From positions 1 through 34,416 of IMG/VR virus record IMGVR_UViG_3300032227_000349: DNA of 34,416 nt. One strand, written 5' to 3'. The position numbers were made by a program, and so were the translations under genes. Numbering within the stretch: position 1 is the first letter of the stretch; each line of letters opens with the position of its first letter. Shown one piece after another: positions 15,740-31,821 of the stretch. The notes below the pieces were generated by a model that worked only from the letters and a program-made list of their open reading frames with translations, searched no databases and was not told where the DNA came from. The DNA is from a virus. Taxonomy: Duplodnaviria > Caudoviricetes.

Positions 15740-16280
15740 AGGCGTAGTAAGCAGCGCGACAAATAATAGAGCGCTGCAGTATCCTTTCTAACCGAAGCCG
15801 TAGCCCCAAGGCGAAGGCGAAGGTTAGGGCATACTATAGGGGGCAACCTTGGTGGTTGCCTTAGCAGTACAGAGGGGCGAATATATCGTTGCCCCTCACT
15901 ATACTATTAGGTGTCCAAAGGACACTAATTGGACATCTTTTTTTAATATATTTTTTGTTACCTATGTCACTGCGCCAAAAGCGCAGGTCAAGTGCCACAT
16001 GACGACCCCTATCAAAGTTATGTGGAGTGATACACATACACATACACGCACACATATTTAAAACCCTGGGGTCACTGACCCCGCAAAGTCTCCTCAAGAT
16101 GCAAGCCCTGCACGCCTTGCCTTGCTTTCATGTCTTAAGAACTAGCAATGAGGAGGGCTAGACCTTGCGAGGGCGACAACTCTCAAGCCTGCCCCGTCTC
16201 AATCGCGGGGGGCGCATCGCTTGCCTTGCCTTGCTTGCTTGCGTGTCTCACATATTGAGACACAAGCACGCTTGAGGGGA

Positions 16281-16357
16281 TGTGATGCAACTCACAAAAA
16301 TAATTTTGAAATGTCCGAATTGTCGGTTGACACCGCATGCATGAGGCATGAGAGAGT
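16281..16357 (+). promoter_or_regulatory. Early promoter 1 with CRP/GlxR box
   Basis: TGTGAtgcaacTCACA at 16281-16296; TTGACA at 16327-16332; candidate -10 GAGAGT at 16352-16357. Confidence 0.7.
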
Positions 16358-16407
16358 TCTCTCATCGCTTAAGTCACAACGGCTTAACGAGAACAGGAGA
16401 AACGAAC

Positions 16408-17046
16408 ATGAACGCAACAACAGCAACCAAGGCGAACAAGGCAACCAAGGCGGAGGCGCTTTCAACAATCACCAAGGCGCTTGAATCTGCTCATGAACTC
16501 ATCAAGGCAGAAACAGGCGCACCGCGTGCAACTCTCTTGGTGACCCGCGACCTCAAGGGGCGCAAGGGACATTTCACCCCTTTCACACCTTGGCAGAATG
16601 GCGAGGAATCTTTCTCGGAGATTGCTTTCAATCTTGAGCATTTCACAACACCCGAGGAATTACTCTCGACTCTCTTGCATGAGGTTGCACACTCAATCAA
16701 CCACATGAACGGCATCGAGGATTGTTCCTCGAATCAGTACCACAACGCCAAATTCAAGACACAAGCCGAGGCGCTCGGTCTTAAGACACTAGAAATCAAG
16801 GGCAAGGGGCACGCCTCAACAGAACTCACCGAGTTTGGCGCTAAGCGATGGGCTAAGGCGTTGCGAATCCTTGCGGGTGCATTTGATTTGGTTGCACTTG
16901 GTGGCGAATCTGCCAAGAAGAAAGGGCGCAACACCAACCTAATCAAAGCACAATGCGATTGTGAGCAGATAATCCGCGCAAGCGCATCAGTAATCCAATC
17001 AGGCGTGATGTGCTCACAATGTGAGACATACTTCAAGGCGGTGTGA
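16408..17046 (+). CDS. SprT-like zinc metallopeptidase with C-terminal Zn ribbon
   Basis: TLLHEVAH zincin motif, YHNAKFK third-ligand region, CDC...CSQC; start at ATG 16408 after ACAGGAGA. Confidence 0.85.
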   Translation: MNATTATKANKATKAEALSTITKALESAHELIKAETGAPRATLLVTRDLKGRKGHFTPFTPWQNGEESFSEIAFNLEHFTTPEELLSTLLHEVAHSINHMNGIEDCSSNQYHNAKFKTQAEALGLKTLEIKGKGHASTELTEFGAKRWAKALRILAGAFDLVALGGESAKKKGRNTNLIKAQCDCEQIIRASASVIQSGVMCSQCETYFKAV

Positions 17047-17132
17047 CTTAAGACACAACAGCCCCCGCCGATAGGGTACGGATTCACAATCCAACGGGGG
17101 CACGAACTCTCAACCTCAAGTTGAGGGTTAGG

Positions 17133-17188
17133 TGTGATGGACATCACATCCAAAACGCTTGACACGCTTAGGCTATGGATGAGAAGGT
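17133..17188 (+). promoter_or_regulatory. Early promoter 2 with CRP/GlxR box
   Basis: TGTGAtggacaTCACA 17133-17148; TTGACA 17159-17164; 18-bp spacer; GAAGGT. Confidence 0.75.
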
Positions 17189-17249
17189 TACACCAAGCAA
17201 GACCACAACAGGCACCGCGCAGGTTGTGTATTAAGACAGGAGACAGAAC

Positions 17250-17483
17250 ATGGCTCAAGATTACAAGCCCGCCACAGATTGGAAAGAGGCACTACGCCTA
17301 AGGATTGAAGAAGCAGAAAGCAACGCAGAAAAAAGAAGGGACAAGGCAGAGGAAGATATTTTCAAAATCATCGGCGACTTGCCACCCCTCGCGTTTATCA
17401 CACTACGCTCTTTATTTGAGGAGTGGGAAGAAGCAAGCGCGGATATGGAAAAGTTCACAGAAAGATTAACTAATCTGTATTAA
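17250..17483 (+). CDS. Hypothetical early protein (helical, acidic)
   Basis: 77-aa ORF with AGACAGGAGA RBS at 17234-17243. Confidence 0.8.
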   Translation: MAQDYKPATDWKEALRLRIEEAESNAEKRRDKAEEDIFKIIGDLPPLAFITLRSLFEEWEEASADMEKFTERLTNLY

Positions 17484-17490
17484 GACACAA

Positions 17491-17546
17491 TGTGACCAAC
17501 ATCACAGCCCCAACCCTTGACAGAAGGCGCGTGTTCACGACACGAT
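17491..17546 (+). promoter_or_regulatory. Early promoter 3 with CRP/GlxR box
   Basis: TGTGAccaacaTCACA 17491-17506; TTGACA 17517-17522; 18-bp spacer; CACGAT. Confidence 0.8.
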
Positions 17547-17612
17547 TGGGGCACAAGGTAAGGCGGGGAAGTTCCCCCCTTACTGGCACCAAAAAGAACG
17601 GGAGAAAAAAAC

Positions 17613-17981
17613 ATGGCAACAAGAAGCACAATCGGTATTAAGTCAGAAGATGGCACAATCAAAGCGATTTACTGTCATTGGGATGGATACCCCGAAGGGG
17701 TAGGGGCTGGACTTGTTCAGTTCTACAACACAGCACAACAGGCAACAGAACTCATCAACCTTGGCGGATTCTCTGCACTCATGGAGACACTAGAAGAAAC
17801 CAAGGCGGGAGCCTACAACACACCAAGCGACAGCGCCCGCACATTTACAGGCGAGGGCGATTGGTTCGAGAACTTCAACGCAGGCGAGGAGTATTTCTAT
17901 CTATACACCGAGGGCACAGGATGGCGCTACTCACAAGGTGGAAACTGGGCATGTCTTAAGACAGAAAAAGAGGTGGCGTAA
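17613..17981 (+). CDS. Conserved phage protein of unknown function (YCHWDGYP motif)
   Basis: MATRSTIGI...IYCHWDGYPEGVG...EEYFYLY pattern, familiar from phage early regions; ACGGGAGA RBS. Confidence 0.8.
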   Translation: MATRSTIGIKSEDGTIKAIYCHWDGYPEGVGAGLVQFYNTAQQATELINLGGFSALMETLEETKAGAYNTPSDSARTFTGEGDWFENFNAGEEYFYLYTEGTGWRYSQGGNWACLKTEKEVA

Positions 17982-18160
17982 TGCCTAGCACATGTGAGGA
18001 TTGCGACAGCGTGACACGAATCACACTCGCCCCCTATGGGATGCGGTTCATGGCAGAGATTGCATGTCCTAAATGCGGTGTGTCTTACGACACGAACATT
18101 GACGACAACGACATTGAAACCATCAAGAAATCATTGCTTAAGACAGGAGAAAAAAAATGA
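17981..18160 (+). CDS. Small Zn-finger protein (59 aa)
   Basis: Hand translation MPSTCEDCDS...IACPKCGVSYD...LLKTGEKK*; TAATG coupling with the upstream gene. Confidence 0.7.
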   Translation: MPSTCEDCDSVTRITLAPYGMRFMAEIACPKCGVSYDTNIDDNDIETIKKSLLKTGEKK

Positions 18161-18324
18161 GTATGCAACCCAAGAAATGCCAGCAATGCGGGGCGGATAC
18201 TTTCAAAGAGTATTACACCACCATGCAAGGAAGCGGGCGCAGACCCCGCACAGTAGAGGCATGGATATGTAGCGACACATGCGCCACCTCTTTCTTCGGA
18301 GAAAAGATTGAAAGTGTGGCTTAA
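18157..18324 (+). CDS. Small Zn-finger protein (55 aa, CxxC...CSxxC)
   Basis: MSMQPKKCQQCGAD...WICSDTCATSFFGEKIESVA*; AGACAGGAGA RBS; ATGA overlap. Confidence 0.75.
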   Translation: MSMQPKKCQQCGADTFKEYYTTMQGSGRRPRTVEAWICSDTCATSFFGEKIESVA

Positions 18325-18331
18325 GACACAA

Positions 18332-18388
18332 TGTGATTAACATCACAGCCCTAAACCATTGACAGATGGCGCATGCTCAAGACATGAT
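18332..18388 (+). promoter_or_regulatory. Early promoter 4 with CRP/GlxR box
   Basis: TGTGAttaacaTCACA 18332-18347; TTGACA 18359-18364; 18-bp spacer; CATGAT. Confidence 0.8.
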
Positions 18389-18445
18389 TAGGGCACAAGC
18401 AAGACGGGAAATCCTCGGCTTGTTTATTAAGACAGGAGAACGAAG

Positions 18446-18610
18446 ATGGATGCACGATACGCAATGGCAGATGCTTACAAGGCACTACGCCGAGCAGGTA
18501 TGGAAGCAACAGAGTTTGAGGCAGAGATAAACAACTGCACAGATTCAGAGCATGCATATCGCATCGCCCTCAAGTGGCAAGCGATTGCAAATAAGAAAGT
18601 TGTGGCTTAA
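18446..18610 (+). CDS. Hypothetical early protein (54 aa)
   Basis: MDARYAMADAYKALRRAG...IANKKVVA*; AGACAGGAGA RBS at 18430-18439. Confidence 0.75.
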   Translation: MDARYAMADAYKALRRAGMEATEFEAEINNCTDSEHAYRIALKWQAIANKKVVA

Positions 18611-18624
18611 GACAGAAGAAAAAA

Positions 18625-18681
18625 TGTGATGCAAATCACAGCCTCAAATGCTTGACGGGCACGCGGTCATCATGCGACCAT
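18625..18681 (+). promoter_or_regulatory. Early promoter 5 with CRP/GlxR box
   Basis: TGTGAtgcaaaTCACA 18625-18640; TTGACG 18652-18657; 18-bp spacer; GACCAT. Confidence 0.75.
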
Positions 18682-18731
18682 TGAGGCACTGGTAACAATC
18701 CCGTTACCTACAAGCACAGGAGAAAAAGCAG

Positions 18732-19298
18732 ATGAAGAAAGCAGAACTAAAGGCAGGCGTTGCATACTATGCAACCTCTCGCAATAACAACATGGAGACA
18801 TACCATGAGTCATGTTTTAAGACACACAAACAGCACGAACACAATCGCTACTATGTAATGTTTGATGAAGATGGACAACCAAAGACTGGATACAGAAGCC
18901 CAAGCGTTATATGGATGACCAACTGCACGACCTATGGAGCCGACTGTCCAACTCACCGACCACGCGAAGGCTGGTCAGGAATTGCATGTCCTAAGACAGA
19001 CTTCCGACTCATGGACATCCGCGATGAATACTGGTCAGTAATAAAGCGCATGATTCAGCGCCGTAAAGAGCGCCCAACTAAGGACATCAGAGCAGAGCGC
19101 CTACGCCGTATCGCCAAGCGCAATCAAACAAAACAAGAAGAACCAATCAAGGCAGAATTCTATTCTGTCTTAAGTCAGGTTACTGGAGACTACTGCTCAT
19201 CATGGCACACACTCGGTGGGTTCAGCGTTGAGGAGATGGCAAAGATTACCAAGGCACTCAAGGCAAGCATGCCAGCGGTCATGGCGGTGGCATCATGA
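18732..19298 (+). CDS. Hypothetical early protein (188 aa)
   Basis: ORF with ACAGGAGA RBS at 18716-18723. Confidence 0.8.
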   Translation: MKKAELKAGVAYYATSRNNNMETYHESCFKTHKQHEHNRYYVMFDEDGQPKTGYRSPSVIWMTNCTTYGADCPTHRPREGWSGIACPKTDFRLMDIRDEYWSVIKRMIQRRKERPTKDIRAERLRRIAKRNQTKQEEPIKAEFYSVLSQVTGDYCSSWHTLGGFSVEEMAKITKALKASMPAVMAVAS

Positions 19299-19483
19299 CC
19301 TGTAGTTTTTGCGGTGCGAAGGGTGTGAAACTTGATGCCATAAATTATGGCGGAAAGTTGGTGATGCGATGCATATCATGCAAGGTGCTTGATGGGGTGC
19401 AAGCAGACAGCACCGAGACAATCTGCGGAGACTGCCTTATCCCCCTATCCACATGCCAACATGCCAAGGAGTACAAGAGATGA
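19295..19483 (+). CDS. Cys-rich Zn-finger protein (62 aa)
   Basis: CSFC, CISC, CGDC, CQH; ATGA overlap with the upstream gene. Confidence 0.65.
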   Translation: MTCSFCGAKGVKLDAINYGGKLVMRCISCKVLDGVQADSTETICGDCLIPLSTCQHAKEYKR

Positions 19484-19641
19484 AACTAAATAGACGAGGC
19501 AAGCGAGTGCGTTCTGTCTTAATACTTATCATCATAATCGGTGGCGTTTGGTTCACATCAACACATCACCGAGTCTATGGCAACTGCCATCAGACCATTG
19601 AAGGATACACATGCGACCTAATCAGATGGGAGAAAAACTAA
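19480..19641 (+). CDS. Small single-pass membrane protein
   Basis: MKLNRRGKRVRSVLILIIIIGGVWF: basic N-terminus then a TM helix; ATGA overlap at 19480. Confidence 0.7.
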   Translation: MKLNRRGKRVRSVLILIIIIGGVWFTSTHHRVYGNCHQTIEGYTCDLIRWEKN

Positions 19642-19880
19642 TGAGCAGACAACATCACTATGCAATTATGTTTGACGAAGCAACAAATCGTTGGAGCATA
19701 GACATAGACACAGAAGAAAAAGTCTTTTACGAAGGCTCTATCTACAACACAGCAACTCGCAAGTGGGAGTATGGGTATGCAGGTGACGGCAACTTCATCG
19801 GCAGAGAACAAGAACTTACCGAAGCGATAAGCGAATTCCTAGATAAACAAAATGAATTGTTACTTAAGACAGAGATGTGA
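19641..19880 (+). CDS. Hypothetical acidic early protein
   Basis: Start at MSRQHH (TAATG coupling), 79 aa. Confidence 0.7.
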   Translation: MSRQHHYAIMFDEATNRWSIDIDTEEKVFYEGSIYNTATRKWEYGYAGDGNFIGREQELTEAISEFLDKQNELLLKTEM

Positions 19881-19931
19881 CCAACATCACACCACAAATG
19901 CTTGACTTACTATGCCAACGGATGGCAGAGT
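19876..19931 (+). promoter_or_regulatory. Early promoter 6 with CRP/GlxR box
   Basis: TGTGAccaacaTCACA 19876-19891; TTGACT 19902-19907; 18-bp spacer; TGg-CAGAGT. Confidence 0.75.
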
Positions 19932-19961
19932 AATCACTACCAACTAGAACAGGAGAACAAA

Positions 19962-20303
19962 ATGTCAGACGAAAAGATTACAATCAGTGTTGAGGTTAAC
20001 CGTCAGGAACTATGGGATGCAGTCTTTGGTTCAGCATGGGAATCCTTTGGCACTCACTGGTACTCATGTGAATACCTTGGCGATACATCTTGGGATGTCA
20101 TCGGTCAGGTCAAACTGGTAGCCATTGACGAGGTTACCTTACTTAAGACAGAAAAGATTGTCGGCATTGAGGAGTTAGCCAAAGCCTTACCTATTGCCAA
20201 CGAGCAGGTATCTATGGACTTGTTCGACTTTGATGATTACGATGCTATCTGCGGTGATGCAGTGTTACAGGTGGCTGTACTTGGAGAGGTGGTGTATGGC
20301 TAA
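19962..20303 (+). CDS. Hypothetical acidic phage protein
   Basis: Start MSDEK after ACAGGAGA (19949-19956); C-terminus DYDAICGDAVLQVAVLGEVVYG. Confidence 0.8.
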   Translation: MSDEKITISVEVNRQELWDAVFGSAWESFGTHWYSCEYLGDTSWDVIGQVKLVAIDEVTLLKTEKIVGIEELAKALPIANEQVSMDLFDFDDYDAICGDAVLQVAVLGEVVYG

Positions 20304-20476
20304 TGACTACCATGACAAAAGAGTGGGTCAGTTACTGGTATGTATGCACATCATGTGATGCCTCTATCGAGATAGTAACAAGACGAACTAAAAATCGTGC
20401 ACCTCAATGCACATGCAAGCACAGCCATGTAGTTCTATGTCAGCAATCAGTTGTTGATAAGAAAGTTATGGCTTAA
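20303..20476 (+). CDS. Small Zn-ribbon protein (57 aa)
   Basis: MTTMTKEWVSYWYVCTSCDASIE...APQCTCKH...DKKVMA*; TAATG coupling. Confidence 0.7.
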   Translation: MTTMTKEWVSYWYVCTSCDASIEIVTRRTKNRAPQCTCKHSHVVLCQQSVVDKKVMA

Positions 20477-20479
20477 GAC

Positions 20480-20629
20480 ATGAACCCAACCGAACGCAGA
20501 CAAGTACAACGCCTTGCTAAGCGAGCGCGTGACCAACGCAACGCCACGACAGACAACGAATCGTTTGACTATTGGCAAGGCGTTATGGAAAACTTACTCA
20601 ACCAACTAAAGACAGGAGACAACAAGTGA
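20480..20629 (+). CDS. Hypothetical protein (49 aa)
   Basis: MNPTERRQVQRLAKRARDQRN...LKTGDNK*; fills the gap in the operon. Confidence 0.6.
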   Translation: MNPTERRQVQRLAKRARDQRNATTDNESFDYWQGVMENLLNQLKTGDNK

Positions 20630-20739
20630 GTGAGCCACAGTACCTAGAGGGTGACGACATAGCCCTTGGTAAAGACGAAGAAGATACCGAACCCAACCCA
20701 CAATACGACACACTTGAGGAGATGTACGGAGATGACTAA
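20626..20739 (+). CDS. Highly acidic micro-protein (37 aa)
   Basis: GTG start overlapping the upstream TGA; AGACAGGAGA RBS at 20610-20619; MSEPQYLEGDDIALGKDEEDTEPNPQYDTLEEMYGDD*. Confidence 0.65.
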   Translation: MSEPQYLEGDDIALGKDEEDTEPNPQYDTLEEMYGDD

Positions 20740-20995
20740 GCAACTAGAAGTCGGTGCATTACTTAAGACAGAAACTGCATACGACAAGGACATGAACATC
20801 ACCTTTGATGGTCAGGAGATACGAGTTATCCTGCATTGGGATGACCACGATGGCTTTGATATTCAGTGGCTTGACCTTGAAGGCAGATGGATTCAGGCAC
20901 CAGCATGGGCAGACAAGATTGAGGAAGATGGCGAGATGTCGGTTGGATTCTTTCTTGATTCACTGGAGGCACACACTAAGAAGGAGACACCATGA
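20732..20995 (+). CDS. Hypothetical acidic early protein
   Basis: Start MTKQLEVG after GAGGAG, 87 aa. Confidence 0.7.
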   Translation: MTKQLEVGALLKTETAYDKDMNITFDGQEIRVILHWDDHDGFDIQWLDLEGRWIQAPAWADKIEEDGEMSVGFFLDSLEAHTKKETP

Positions 20996-21168
20996 CAGTC
21001 TTAATGCAGTGCCTTGGTTGTGGCACGACAGTAACCAATCCAAAAGTAATGAACTACATGTACGAGAAGTGCGACCCCTGCACCGACAAACAAAAAGAGA
21101 TGGAAGAAAGAGCGATAGATACTTTCTTACATGCCGAAGCCGAGAGAAAGTTGGAGCAAGATGCGTAA
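20992..21168 (+). CDS. Small Zn-finger protein (58 aa)
   Basis: MTVLMQCLGCGTT...EKCDPCTDKQKEMEE...*; AAGGAG RBS; ATGA overlap. Confidence 0.7.
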   Translation: MTVLMQCLGCGTTVTNPKVMNYMYEKCDPCTDKQKEMEERAIDTFLHAEAERKLEQDA

Positions 21169-21601
21169 TGACTTAAGACAGATACACCCACATGCCCGAC
21201 TGTGGATAGCAACTGCAATTATCTTAGGACTTATCTTAGTTCTTAAGCCAGCATCAAAGTTCATGGCACCACCACATGGCAAGGTGATTGCTTATTATCA
21301 GAACGATTACCAACGCTATGCCTTAGACAAACTCATAGAACAGGACAACCTCGAACAGTACCCCTGCCTTTATGAATTGTGGATGCGCGAGTCTAACTGG
21401 CGACCTCAAGCCCTTAACAAAAGCAGTAAGGCTCTAGGTATAGCGCAGTTAATGCCAGCCACATGGGTAAATATCAAGGCTAAGCCAACACTTGACGGAT
21501 ATAAACAGGTGGATTTTGGGTTGCGCTATCTCAAACACAGATATGGAAGCAAGGGTATATGCAGGGCATACGCCCATCACTTAGCCAAGGGGTGGTACTA
21601 A
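21161..21601 (+). CDS. Membrane-anchored lytic transglycosylase (SLT/lysozyme-like)
   Basis: N-terminal TM helix; catalytic RESNW, ALGIAQLM, YLKHRYG, C-terminal GWY. Confidence 0.85.
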   Translation: MRNDLRQIHPHARLWIATAIILGLILVLKPASKFMAPPHGKVIAYYQNDYQRYALDKLIEQDNLEQYPCLYELWMRESNWRPQALNKSSKALGIAQLMPATWVNIKAKPTLDGYKQVDFGLRYLKHRYGSKGICRAYAHHLAKGWY

Positions 21602-21945
21602 TGTTTAAGATTAAATTCTTTCGTGTATTAAGTCAGAGTTCACCACGCTATAAAGGTAACAATACAATTAGTTACCAGTTAAAGTATGACCCTAAGATGT
21701 GGCAAGGTGCATCATGTGCTGGCATAGACACCGAGTTTTTTTATCCACAACAGGATAAGTTTGAAGCAGGTGAGGCGGAGTTACTCAAGCGTATCTGTGT
21801 GGACTGCCCAGTCATGGAAGCCTGCCTTGAGTGGGGCGTAGCGATGGAAAGGTATGGAGTATGGGGTGCGACCACACCACACGAAAGGTTTGCTATCCGT
21901 AAGAGACACAACCTTATGGTCAATGACCCTCAGCACAACCCATGA
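21601..21945 (+). CDS. whiB: WhiB-family Fe-S transcription factor
   Basis: W..ASC...FFYP...ICVDCPVMEAC...YGVWGATTPHER: four Cys plus the G(V/I)WGG-like turn. Confidence 0.95.
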   Translation: MFKIKFFRVLSQSSPRYKGNNTISYQLKYDPKMWQGASCAGIDTEFFYPQQDKFEAGEAELLKRICVDCPVMEACLEWGVAMERYGVWGATTPHERFAIRKRHNLMVNDPQHNP

Positions 21946-21951
21946 TATAGT
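21923..21951 (+). promoter_or_regulatory. Promoter for the candidate small RNA
   Basis: ATGACC-17 bp-TATAGT with extended -10 TG at 21943-21944; no plus-strand gene downstream. Confidence 0.55.
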
Positions 21952-21957
21952 TCTAAT

Positions 21958-22046
21958 GTTCACCAGCCCCTACGAAGGGGAAGCGCAGAGGTTGGTGAAC
22001 TTAGAAAAGCCCATCAGATTCTCTCCTGTCTCTGGTGGGTTTCTCT
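21958..22046 (+). ncRNA. Candidate two-hairpin small RNA; second hairpin also a likely terminator between convergent operons
   Basis: Stem GTTCACCAGCC/GGTTGGTGAAC (21958-22000); stem AAGCCCATCAGA/TCTGGTGGGTTT (22007-22042) with loop TTCTCTCCTGTC. Confidence 0.55.
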
Positions 22047-22584
22047 ATGTATTAAGACCGAGTTCTTTAGCCAACATAAATACTTCATCACTTAAGTCAT
22101 CAAGAGTTCCATCGTTGTAGATAACATGACTAAACATATAGTTATCCATTGCATGTTCAGAAGCGTGACCATTAACAGCACTGTGATTGTGTCGGTTGAT
22201 ACGCCACACTGTGCCACCTAACTTCTTGATTGCATCTGCTTCATTAGGAAAGCGAACATCAGATATAACAACACGGTCATCCTGTCTTAAGTCACGCATC
22301 GCCATCTTAATCCACACATCATCGCCAATCATCTTGCGACCAAACTCTGTGCCAAGTACCTGCAATAGACGGCGAACTTCTGGATTCTTCTTTGCTATAT
22401 CCCAGCCATAGTCATCTACATAATCAGAGACACGAGTGATGCTATCTAATCTTGGGTTAATAATCTGTAACGCATGTCGCATCGGGTCAGCAAAAGCACG
22501 GCGTTGGTATTCGTAATTAAGACACAACAATTCAGCAGTTGAATCTTTACCTGACTGTGCGTACCCACTCAAACCGATAATCAT
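22045..22584 (-). CDS. Deoxynucleoside monophosphate kinase
   Basis: IIGLSGYAQSGKDS P-loop, FADPMR, RRLLQVLGTEFGR, ISDVRFPNEA, HASE. Confidence 0.92.
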   Translation of the reverse strand: MIIGLSGYAQSGKDSTAELLCLNYEYQRRAFADPMRHALQIINPRLDSITRVSDYVDDYGWDIAKKNPEVRRLLQVLGTEFGRKMIGDDVWIKMAMRDLRQDDRVVISDVRFPNEADAIKKLGGTVWRINRHNHSAVNGHASEHAMDNYMFSHVIYNDGTLDDLSDEVFMLAKELGLNT

Positions 22585-30248: not shown

Positions 30249-30418
30249 TATTCATCCTTCGGGTTGCGTAGTGGATAGGTGACAGCCCAAGCAATGAGTG
30301 TGCCTGCGATGGCATAACCAACTACTGTTTTGGCTGAACCATCAAGGACTACCCAGGCAATGAACATGCCTAGTAAAGTCCATAGTTGGTCAACCATATC
30401 TTTCATTATTTTCTTCAT
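30248..30418 (-). CDS. Small two-TM membrane protein (56 aa)
   Basis: MKKIMKDMVDQLWTLLGMFIAWVVLDGSAKTVVGYAIAGTLIAWAVTYPLRNPKDE*; overlaps both neighbours; AGGAGA RBS. Confidence 0.75.
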   Translation of the reverse strand: MKKIMKDMVDQLWTLLGMFIAWVVLDGSAKTVVGYAIAGTLIAWAVTYPLRNPKDE

Positions 30419-31821
30419 GGTTTTCTCCTATAGGCTGCTGCTCCTGCCATGCCTGCTGCATTAACTGCAGCCTGCCCAGCAATAACTGATGCGACAATAA
30501 TCTTTTCTGACTCTGTTCTTTCTTCATCTGACATGTCAGCACCGATGCTTGCGATAGCAAGTAGTGCTTGTCCTGGGTCAGTAAAGATTGCTTCAACTAA
30601 CGCTGCTGGATTTTCTAATACAACAAGCGCTGCTGCTACCTCTGCTGTGATAACAACTTCGTTACCGTTCTCATCTTGACGAACTTCAACAGGGGTTTGT
30701 GGTGGTAAATCTTCATAGGTTAAGCCAGCATCTTGGATAGCCTGTGCTGAGACTGGCTCGCCATGTGCTGCTTCAATGATTGCTTCCGCTACCACTGCTC
30801 GTTCCTCTGGTGTAGAATCTTCTGTAACCACAACAGGTGGTTCAGGTTCTATAGCAGGGGGTTCGGGTGCAGGTTCAGGAGCAGGTTCGGGAACTACAGG
30901 AGCAGGAACTTCCTCTACAGGAGGAGCAGGTTCTTCAACAGGAGGCTCTGGCTCTGGAGCAGGAGGCTCTGGAACTATCTCAGGAGCAGGCTCAGGCTCT
31001 ACTGGTACAGGCTCAGGCTCAGGTGCTGGCGCTGGAGGCTCGGCAGGCGGCTCTGGCTGGACTTCTGGAGCAGGTTCGGGTTGAGGTACGGGAACTGGCT
31101 CAGGCTGTGGGGTTACCACGGGTGTCGGCATGGGTTCTGGCTGCGAGGCGGGAGGCTCAGGAATTGGCTGAGGCTGAGGTACTATCACTGGGTCAGGTTG
31201 CACCACAGGAGTAGGTTCAGGAATAGGAGTTGGTGATGGAGATGGGTTTGATTCTGGGATTGGTTCTGGGGATGGTGATGGGGATGCTGTACTCGTGGTG
31301 GTTTCTAAAGGAGTAGGTGATGGTTCAGGCAACGGAGCAGTATTGGTTGGCTCAGGTGAAGGACTTGGAGCAACAGTTGGCTCAGGCGAAGGCGAAGGAG
31401 TTGGCGTTACAGAAGGCGTTGGACTCGGCTCAACTGTCGGAGCAGGACTTGCAGTTGCAGTTGCGCCGTCTGACGGCGAAGGAGAAGGCACAGGAGTCGG
31501 CTCTACAGTGGGACTTGGAGTAGGAGTAGGCTCAGGCGCTATGCCGTTGTAATACCATGTGCTCTCAGGAGCAGTGGTGCTAATAAAAGTTTTCCATTGT
31601 CCTTGTGTGCCAATAGAACAAAACAAGGCAGCAATGTTTCCTTTGCCTTGAAAAAATGGTTCGGTTGTACTCCAACCAACATTAAATACTCTGGATTCGC
31701 CAGCCTCATTACCGCAAGTAACAGTTATTTGACCTGTGTTTTCTGCTTGGGCTGATGGTGTAAAGAAAAAAGAAGTTCCTAGTGTAAGGAACGATACTGC
31801 AAGTAAACGGGGAAGTTTCAC
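30415..31821 (-). CDS. Exported Pro/Glu/Thr-rich protein with signal peptide and C-terminal hydrophobic anchor
   Basis: Signal peptide ending AQA, small Cys-containing domain, about 240 aa of PS/PT/PE repeats, acidic domain, hydrophobic tail then RRKP. Confidence 0.8.
   Translation of the reverse strand: MKLPRLLAVSFLTLGTSFFFTPSAQAENTGQITVTCGNEAGESRVFNVGWSTTEPFFQGKGNIAALFCSIGTQGQWKTFISTTAPESTWYYNGIAPEPTPTPSPTVEPTPVPSPSPSDGATATASPAPTVEPSPTPSVTPTPSPSPEPTVAPSPSPEPTNTAPLPEPSPTPLETTTSTASPSPSPEPIPESNPSPSPTPIPEPTPVVQPDPVIVPQPQPIPEPPASQPEPMPTPVVTPQPEPVPVPQPEPAPEVQPEPPAEPPAPAPEPEPVPVEPEPAPEIVPEPPAPEPEPPVEEPAPPVEEVPAPVVPEPAPEPAPEPPAIEPEPPVVVTEDSTPEERAVVAEAIIEAAHGEPVSAQAIQDAGLTYEDLPPQTPVEVRQDENGNEVVITAEVAAALVVLENPAALVEAIFTDPGQALLAIASIGADMSDEERTESEKIIVASVIAGQAAVNAAGMAGAAAYRRKP

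Follow-up and report, generated by a model that had tools for sequence, protein, structure and literature searches.

Here, we describe an element at the junction between whiB and a dNMP kinase gene of an uncultured phage that is probably a small RNA, acting in trans on tagged early messages and blocking the early translation of its own phage. The loop of its terminator-like hairpin is complementary to a tag in the ribosome-binding sites of early genes and, because loop and tag change together between related phages, the RNA would likely shut off the tagged gene set at once. If true, this would be a simple switch-off of a gene class at the level of translation for phages relying on host RNA polymerase. 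The same design is found in cultured phages of laboratory strains of Streptomyces and of Mycobacterium smegmatis.

The element between whiB and the kinase gene

The window (the whole stretch of DNA analyzed, 34,416 nucleotides) is the record of a 34.4-kb virus that is 85% complete. Its plus strand carries a block of small genes from 16408 to whiB, and its minus strand a replication operon with exonuclease, helicase, primase, and sigma-like genes and the kinase gene as the last (Table 1). The terminase is ~50% identical to terminases of Streptomyces cluster BF phages, which together with WhiB suggests an actinobacterial host, likely in freshwater. We refer to the plus-strand block as early, as its position and promoter layout suggest. 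TGTGA-N6-TCACA palindromes occur at 16281, 17133, 17491, 18332, 18625, 19876, and 28665; of the six copies within the early block, five are followed after ~10 nt by a TTGAC hexamer, one copy sits upstream of the replication operon, and such palindromes are found in most long loci of class A (defined below). This layout recalls the promoter-plus-inverted-repeat layout of cluster K ESAS, and we take the palindromes to resemble a CRP/GlxR site. Elsewhere on the minus strand (30415-31821), a 468-aa frame has a signal-like N-terminus and a long Pro/Glu-rich repeat.

The element (21958-22046) consists of a predicted promoter, an optional hairpin 1, and the terminator-like hairpin 2 with its 12-nt loop. 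The initial annotation had placed TGATATAGT at 21943-21951, the start at G21958, and TCTCCTGTCT at 22022-22031, and all these coordinates are right, as are those of the AGACAGGAGA, ACAGGAGA, and ACGGGAGA sites (Table 1). The fold of 21958-22050 has an energy of −42.9 kcal/mol (z −5.2), which 0 of 200 shuffles equalled; the minus strand folds as well (z −5.5), and its loop would show GACAGGAGA. In a 19-version alignment, 98.8% of the cells in the stems pair and 15 of 28 pairs are changed on both sides, values above all 500 shuffles and all slid registers, with the proviso that these versions were picked by hand for having hairpin 1 and that related sequences can beat such a shuffle without structure. 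Hairpin 2 is paired in 100% of cells, with 5 of its 12 pairs changed on both sides. It has the G+C stem and U-rich end (UUUCUCU) of an intrinsic terminator, and its 12-nt loop exceeds the 3 to 8 nt that the terminator scan allows. The loop of hairpin 1 (21975-21983) is kept across classes A and B, and AGGGGAAG occurs in 30 of 98 versions, though the hairpin can be lost.

Table 1. Positions in the window of the element, its flanking genes, and its predicted targets
Feature	Positions	Strand	Remarks
whiB	21601..21945	+	Pfam PF02467, E 3.6e-14; closes early block; without tag
dNMP kinase gene	22045..22584	−	Pfam PF21448, E 1.3e-20; convergent with whiB; last in replication operon
Weak −35-like hexamer ATGACC	21923..21928	+	Within 3′ end of whiB
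Extended −10 box TGnTATAGT (TGATATAGT)	21943..21951	+	Predicted; shares bases with whiB stop codon; transcript predicted to begin near 21958
Hairpin 1 (optional), loop AAGGGGAAG	21958..22000	+	Fold; 10/16 pairs changed on both sides; in 42/76 versions
Hairpin 2, 12-bp terminator-like stem	22007..22042	+	A-rich 5′, U-rich 3′; between convergent whiB and kinase genes
12-nt loop UUCUCUCCUGUC	22019..22030	+	Complement of early tag GACAGGAGA; opening cost 2.2 kcal/mol
Predicted target ACAGGAGA	16393..16400	+	Before ATG 16408, SprT-like gene
Predicted target AGACAGGAGA	17234..17243	+	Before ATG 17250; −15.3 kcal/mol
Predicted weaker target ACGGGAGA	17598..17605	+	Before ATG 17613; −12.5 kcal/mol
Predicted target AGACAGGAGA	18141..18150	+	Before ATG 18157; −15.6 kcal/mol
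Predicted target AGACAGGAGA	18430..18439	+	Before ATG 18446; −15.6 kcal/mol
Predicted target ACAGGAGA	18716..18723	+	Before ATG 18732
Predicted target ACAGGAGA	19949..19956	+	Before ATG 19962
Predicted target AGACAGGAGA	20610..20619	+	Before GTG 20626; −15.3 kcal/mol

The conserved −10 box and the terminator-like end are predicted features of a putative transcript with its own promoter. With anchors set by hand after seeing the data, 74 of 76 distinct upstream sequences have a TANNNT box that precedes the first stem by 4 to 10 nt, against a mean of 13.6 and a maximum of 24 in shuffles; with an automatic anchor, the count is 42 of 77. The box tracks whichever stem is first, with or without hairpin 1. 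The TG of the extended −10 box in the window is part of the whiB stop codon, and the −35 region matches TTGACA at four of six positions in 42 of 76 distinct upstream sequences.

The element appears to be noncoding, as neither strand has a conserved start, frame, or peptide. The promoter had been annotated as lacking a plus-strand gene downstream; ATG 21956 in fact opens a frame of 54 codons, which lacks conservation (a plus-strand start is present in 26 of 52 versions, with varied frames). We likewise rejected a 14-codon minus-strand frame behind the loop, which is not conserved either: of 61 class A versions, 22 have a minus-strand start, and the lengths of the frames vary. Rfam families, including C4 (RF01695) and 6C, gave no match in the window at the gathering threshold, and a search of 21800-22200 returned two chance-level matches only (E 0.94 and 8).

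All searches pooled, we found 201 loci with a WhiB hit and 98 distinct versions of the element. Among the 80 loci found with the kinase gene, 77 hold TCTCCTGTC within 400 nt of the kinase stop codon; in the remaining three, one contig ends, one has TCTCCTGTC behind an insert, and one (L047) has another loop. The initial annotation had made conservation of the loop, and its match to early ribosome-binding sites in relatives, a test of its proposal, and where the tag is GACAGGA the loop is indeed near-invariant, with only two loop sequences among 61 class A versions. The 20 distinct class A stems contain 199 Watson-Crick, 21 G:U, and 0 A:C pairs on the plus strand, an asymmetry that points to the early strand as the one carrying the RNA. 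By energy, class B stems have no strand preference, the plus-strand fold being the better one in only 3 of 11 cases. A general hairpin detector gave hits at 13 of 47 loci, two of them (L157 and L192) probably due to chance, and did not detect class B. No DNA match to the element was present among 50,697 GenBank phage records.

Some versions depart from the common layout. In L047 (4326-4356), a single version inside the class A lineage, a 16-nt loop is complementary to GAAAGGACTAACAATA and predicts another early tag; its contig ends before the early genes, we found no relatives with this loop at the whiB-kinase site, and a metagenome pattern scan for it gave 116 loci, none with WhiB or kinase hits. 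In L077, a small gene with its own terminator and the ribosome-binding site ACGGGAGA is inserted between element and kinase gene, and other inserts follow the element in L014, L055, and L062 to L064.

Joint change of loop and early tag

In the window, ACAGGAGA occurs 8 times against 0.86 expected, a number reached in 0 of 100 shuffles. Seven copies are on the plus strand, each 5 to 8 nt before an early start codon, and the one on the minus strand is the loop. The four best duplexes of the loop in the window, the element itself aside, are with early leaders (−15.3 to −15.6 kcal/mol), and the target sites are predicted to be open, at 0.6 to 1.7 kcal/mol. The loop had been annotated as an exact 10-nt complement of the early ribosome-binding site; the complement is exact, but the 3′ arm of the stem begins with T22031 and the loop thus offers 9 nt (GACAGGAGA). 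These span the Shine-Dalgarno core (AGGAGA) plus a private extension of 3 nt (GUC against GAC). This extension parts early from replication leaders (9 versus 6 Watson-Crick pairs).

Two further claims of the initial annotation hold in part. It described the site as shared by the early genes; the tag is present at roughly one in two early starts (of 18 listed, 9 pair with the loop at −12.4 kcal/mol or better). It also assigned other Shine-Dalgarno contexts to the replication and late genes; the tag is absent from them, and replication leaders reach −11.2 kcal/mol at best, but three late leaders (13862, 12032, and 1034) pair at −12.0 to −13.9 kcal/mol via G:U, equalling the 8-nt early sites. Tagged genes are mostly preceded by an intergenic gap, and many untagged early genes abut the gene upstream. 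The sequence TTAAGAC has 15 copies on the plus strand of the early block (16100-22000), several of which run into tags (TTAAGAC-AGGAGA); class B phages have GTTTAAAC near their tags in its place.

Sister phages, found by a terminase search led by a distant member, have the loop CCAGUC at the same whiB-kinase junction, and others carry two loops, CCUUUCGUC and CCAGUC. With classes defined after viewing the sequences, and with leaders counted in the 68 of 98 versions that reach 3.5 kb or more of early DNA (the other 30 fell short of this length), the tag follows the loop. Class A (loop UCCUGUC, n = 43) has on average 6.86 GACAGGA and 0.44 GACTGG leader matches, and no member is without GACAGGA; class B (loop CCAGUC, n = 17) has 0.24 and 4.35, respectively, and no member is without GACTGG. 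Class BC (two loops, n = 8) has 0 GACAGGA, 2.12 GACTGG, and 1.75 GAYGAAAGG matches, the last being a third tag that none of the 43 class A versions has and that 4 of the 17 class B versions have. Homologous early genes bear the tag of their own phage's class: 13 of 113 B/C-tagged frames, in about four families, match an A-tagged frame. On a quick terminase tree (54 rows), five changes between A and B are needed, at least three of them on well-supported branches; since the early block adjoins the element, module exchange could give several such changes from one origin. In one instance, L158 (class B) lies beside L104 (class A), with near-identical terminases and different tags. Replication-strand leaders of class A avoid GACAGGA (10 matches in 299 kb, 44 loci). 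The phage ct2KA10 has six class A sites and four GACAGGA matches in replication-strand leaders within 7 kb (one genome), and no such loop in its whole genome; 0 of 15 ct2KA10-like loci (one whole early region, the rest partial loci) gave the hairpin. Further two-loop versions lie after whiB in L272, L273, and L309 (CCUUUCAUC with CCUUUCUGUC; CCUUUCGUC with CUCCUUGUG), which have short early regions.

Two features expected of a trans-acting anti-Shine-Dalgarno small RNA are seen in these alignments and predicted folds: a conserved structure exposing a complementary seed, and joint change of seed and targets.

Analogous hairpins in distant actinophages

The loop changes with the tag not only in the sister lineages at the same genomic position but also in distant actinophages, whose hairpins lack sequence similarity to the window element. 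In cultured Streptomyces phages of cluster BF (six genomes viewed; 29 records match), early genes are tagged GGGAGAGAG or GGGGAGAGA, and the tagged block ends in a −10-like box and two hairpins, one short and the other long, the latter with stems that vary and the loop UG(C/U/A)CUCUCUCCCC; the gene after the hairpin uses another ribosome-binding site. Prophage-like Streptomyces contigs pair the loop GCCUCUCCA with the tag GGAGAGGC, and the loop CCUCUCCC with the tag GGGAGAGG. When 11 loops were scored against 19 early regions, each loop scored best in its own group, giving a largely diagonal table with exceptions: the L228 loop also fits class A, and the ct2KA10 sites stand without a loop. L240 is a further exception, as none of its own early leaders matches its loop over 8 nt.

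A terminator hairpin with the loop UUGUUAGUCCUUUC and a partial complement just upstream is present in two other phages, L140 (9001-9032) and L141 (7157-7188), with a matching tag 320 nt upstream in L141. In L239, a distant phage-like contig, a loop UUUUACCUCCUUUUCU lies ~6890 nt upstream of the terminase gene together with AAAAGGAG tags, and may be another case or chance.

Cluster K mycobacteriophages carry start-associated sequences (SAS), with one reversed copy in four K1 phages, and the accessible text of the 2011 description leaves open whether RNA or protein binds them (PMC3203893). The role of SAS was still unknown in 2024, according to the available parts of PMC11373665. In Adephagia (L328:33608-33716; JF704105 ~58607-58715), the reversed SAS lies in the loop of a long hairpin in the gap between genes 92 and 93, preceded by a short hairpin and a −10-like TAGACT box. 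This region is matched in 146 records, and among eight cluster K versions folded, three keep the loop, two alter it, and three lose it. Pixie has 16 SAS, and no reversed copy was found in its whole genome; TM4 has the tag, and none was found in bases 3000-52797. Late transcription appears to initiate in the Adephagia gap, as stated in the accessible portion of PMC11373665, and for this analogue the timing clue points to late transcription.

Proposed mechanism, alternatives, and known systems

Altogether, we favor a model, inferred from sequence, in which an RNA of ~90 nt (~50 nt without hairpin 1) would be transcribed from its own predicted promoter (21923-21951) to the U-rich end near 22046. 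In the cell, this RNA would act in trans, its terminator loop binding across the Shine-Dalgarno core and GAC extension of tagged messages and keeping ribosomes off. Untagged early genes abutting the gene upstream would be silenced through translational coupling. The most likely purpose would be to end early translation later in infection. The initial annotation had likewise proposed a trans-acting RNA that silences the early class through an "address" in its Shine-Dalgarno sequences; the joint change of loop and tag supports this proposal, and the discrete RNA, the repression, and the early-to-middle timing are predictions that follow from it.

The same pairing could instead silence a second phage with the same tag, or hold the phage dormant, with tag classes corresponding to immunity groups, for which c4 of P1 and P7 is a precedent. 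The different tags of phages with near-identical terminases, two-loop versions that cover two tags, and the position of the relatives L229, L230, L234, and L240 in Streptomyces contigs of 90 to 580 kb are consistent with such a role. We nevertheless consider it unlikely, because no integrase or repressor was seen among the window frames (14 and 13 proteins scanned in this 85% complete record) and the Adephagia gap is described, in the accessible part of PMC11373665, as a start of late lytic transcription.

We find it improbable that information flows in the reverse direction, with the hairpin as a sensor in which early messages binding the loop, in cis or in trans, set termination or read-through. 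The hairpins of cluster BF, the prophage-like contigs, and Adephagia do precede same-strand genes and have no clear U tail. However, the window has no conserved plus-strand gene downstream of the element, read-through there would make only antisense RNA to the kinase operon, and, with the loop lying over the Shine-Dalgarno sequence, a paired message would be blocked even under this reading.

A protein, either a translational repressor or a nuclease, might read the tag, leaving the loop as a decoy on the minus-strand kinase transcript or as a DNA site. A protein reader of a Shine-Dalgarno motif is known in T4 RegB, as reported in the available text of PMC1702504, the minus strand of the element would show the tag itself in a loop, and class B stems have no strand preference. 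This idea appears very improbable to us given the G:U asymmetry of class A stems, the conserved −10 box facing the plus strand, and the lack in cluster BF of an annotated minus-side gene ending at the hairpin. Finally, that the element is an ordinary two-way terminator with a loop captured by chance from a nearby ribosome-binding site is hardly credible: its A and U tails and its place between convergent genes would suit a terminator, and several tagged phages lack the loop, but the loop is near-invariant while the stems vary, it changes with the tag in the three freshwater classes as well as in four distant groups, and the element has its own −10 box.

Returning to the small RNA, we regard it as evenly balanced whether actinophages widely run a translation barcode, in which one cognate RNA would read a private tag in the ribosome-binding sites of a gene class, could be given a new address by a few base changes, and may hold two addresses. 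Such a barcode would be the RNA counterpart of T4 RegB, would explain the mycobacteriophage SAS, and may double as same-tag immunity.

In the literature searched, subscription journals excepted, we found no description of the element, nor of a phage RNA directed at an early tag common to several genes. The six supplementary files of PMC10690425 that were searched contain no copy of the loop, and the fold may be an unnamed candidate elsewhere in that work. What is new at the window is that a single orthologous site has three tag classes, with two-address versions among them, together with analogues in cultured Streptomyces phages. Natural tag-RNA pairs with little cross-match could serve as orthogonal translation switches for Actinobacteria.

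The closest parallel to the tag is the SAS of cluster K mycobacteriophages and cluster EF Microbacterium phages, which the accessible parts of PMC3203893, PMC11373665, and PMC7302621 describe as a private, over-conserved ribosome-binding-site tag before nonstructural genes, often after a promoter with an inverted repeat, and with a lone reversed copy in four K1 phages. An SAS is an asymmetric motif 3 to 9 nt before nonstructural starts in one orientation, as are the seven plus-strand ACAGGAGA sites. By contrast, the window tag differs in sequence and length (9 versus 13 nt) and belongs to an unrelated virion type, and the K1 loop, complementary to the 13-nt cluster K consensus, has 0 matches to the early leaders of the window. 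The portions of the SAS papers available give no role and do not mention a hairpin, whereas the window family has covariation of loop and tag and thereby offers a testable RNA partner for actinophage SAS.

Among phage RNAs, c4 is trans-acting and uses short segments left unpaired to target a phage ribosome-binding region, with specificity set by matching base changes; it is directed at one antirepressor operon for immunity. It is known from phages P1 and P7 and corresponds to Rfam RF01695 (listed in PMC2864571). The window RNA is likewise predicted to act in trans through a short unpaired segment on phage ribosome-binding sites with matching base changes; unlike c4, it has no Rfam match, has one or two hairpins, and is predicted to act on 7 to 13 unrelated early genes, mostly without an assigned function, through their shared tag. 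Pyrimidine-rich hairpin loops that pair with purine-rich sites on many messages are also known from the bacterial small RNAs CyaR, RsaE, and LhrC. The 6C RNA is another such small RNA, and its loop-mRNA pairing appears to need no chaperone in Actinobacteria, as far as the accessible text of PMC6486639 goes, which gives the proposed pairing a precedent. These small RNAs are encoded by the host and use generic C-rich seeds, whereas the window RNA would be encoded by the phage and directed at its own genes through a lineage-specific tag that changes with the loop. In the excerpts available (PMC1702504 and PMC3014915), T4 RegB inactivates early phage messages as a class via their Shine-Dalgarno sequences; RegB, however, is a protein cutting GGAG, whereas the reader in the window phage would be an RNA, re-addressed by a few base changes. 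Judged by these analogies, the element resembles c4 and the loop-seed small RNAs in its predicted mode of action and T4 RegB in its predicted purpose, and it belongs to none of them.
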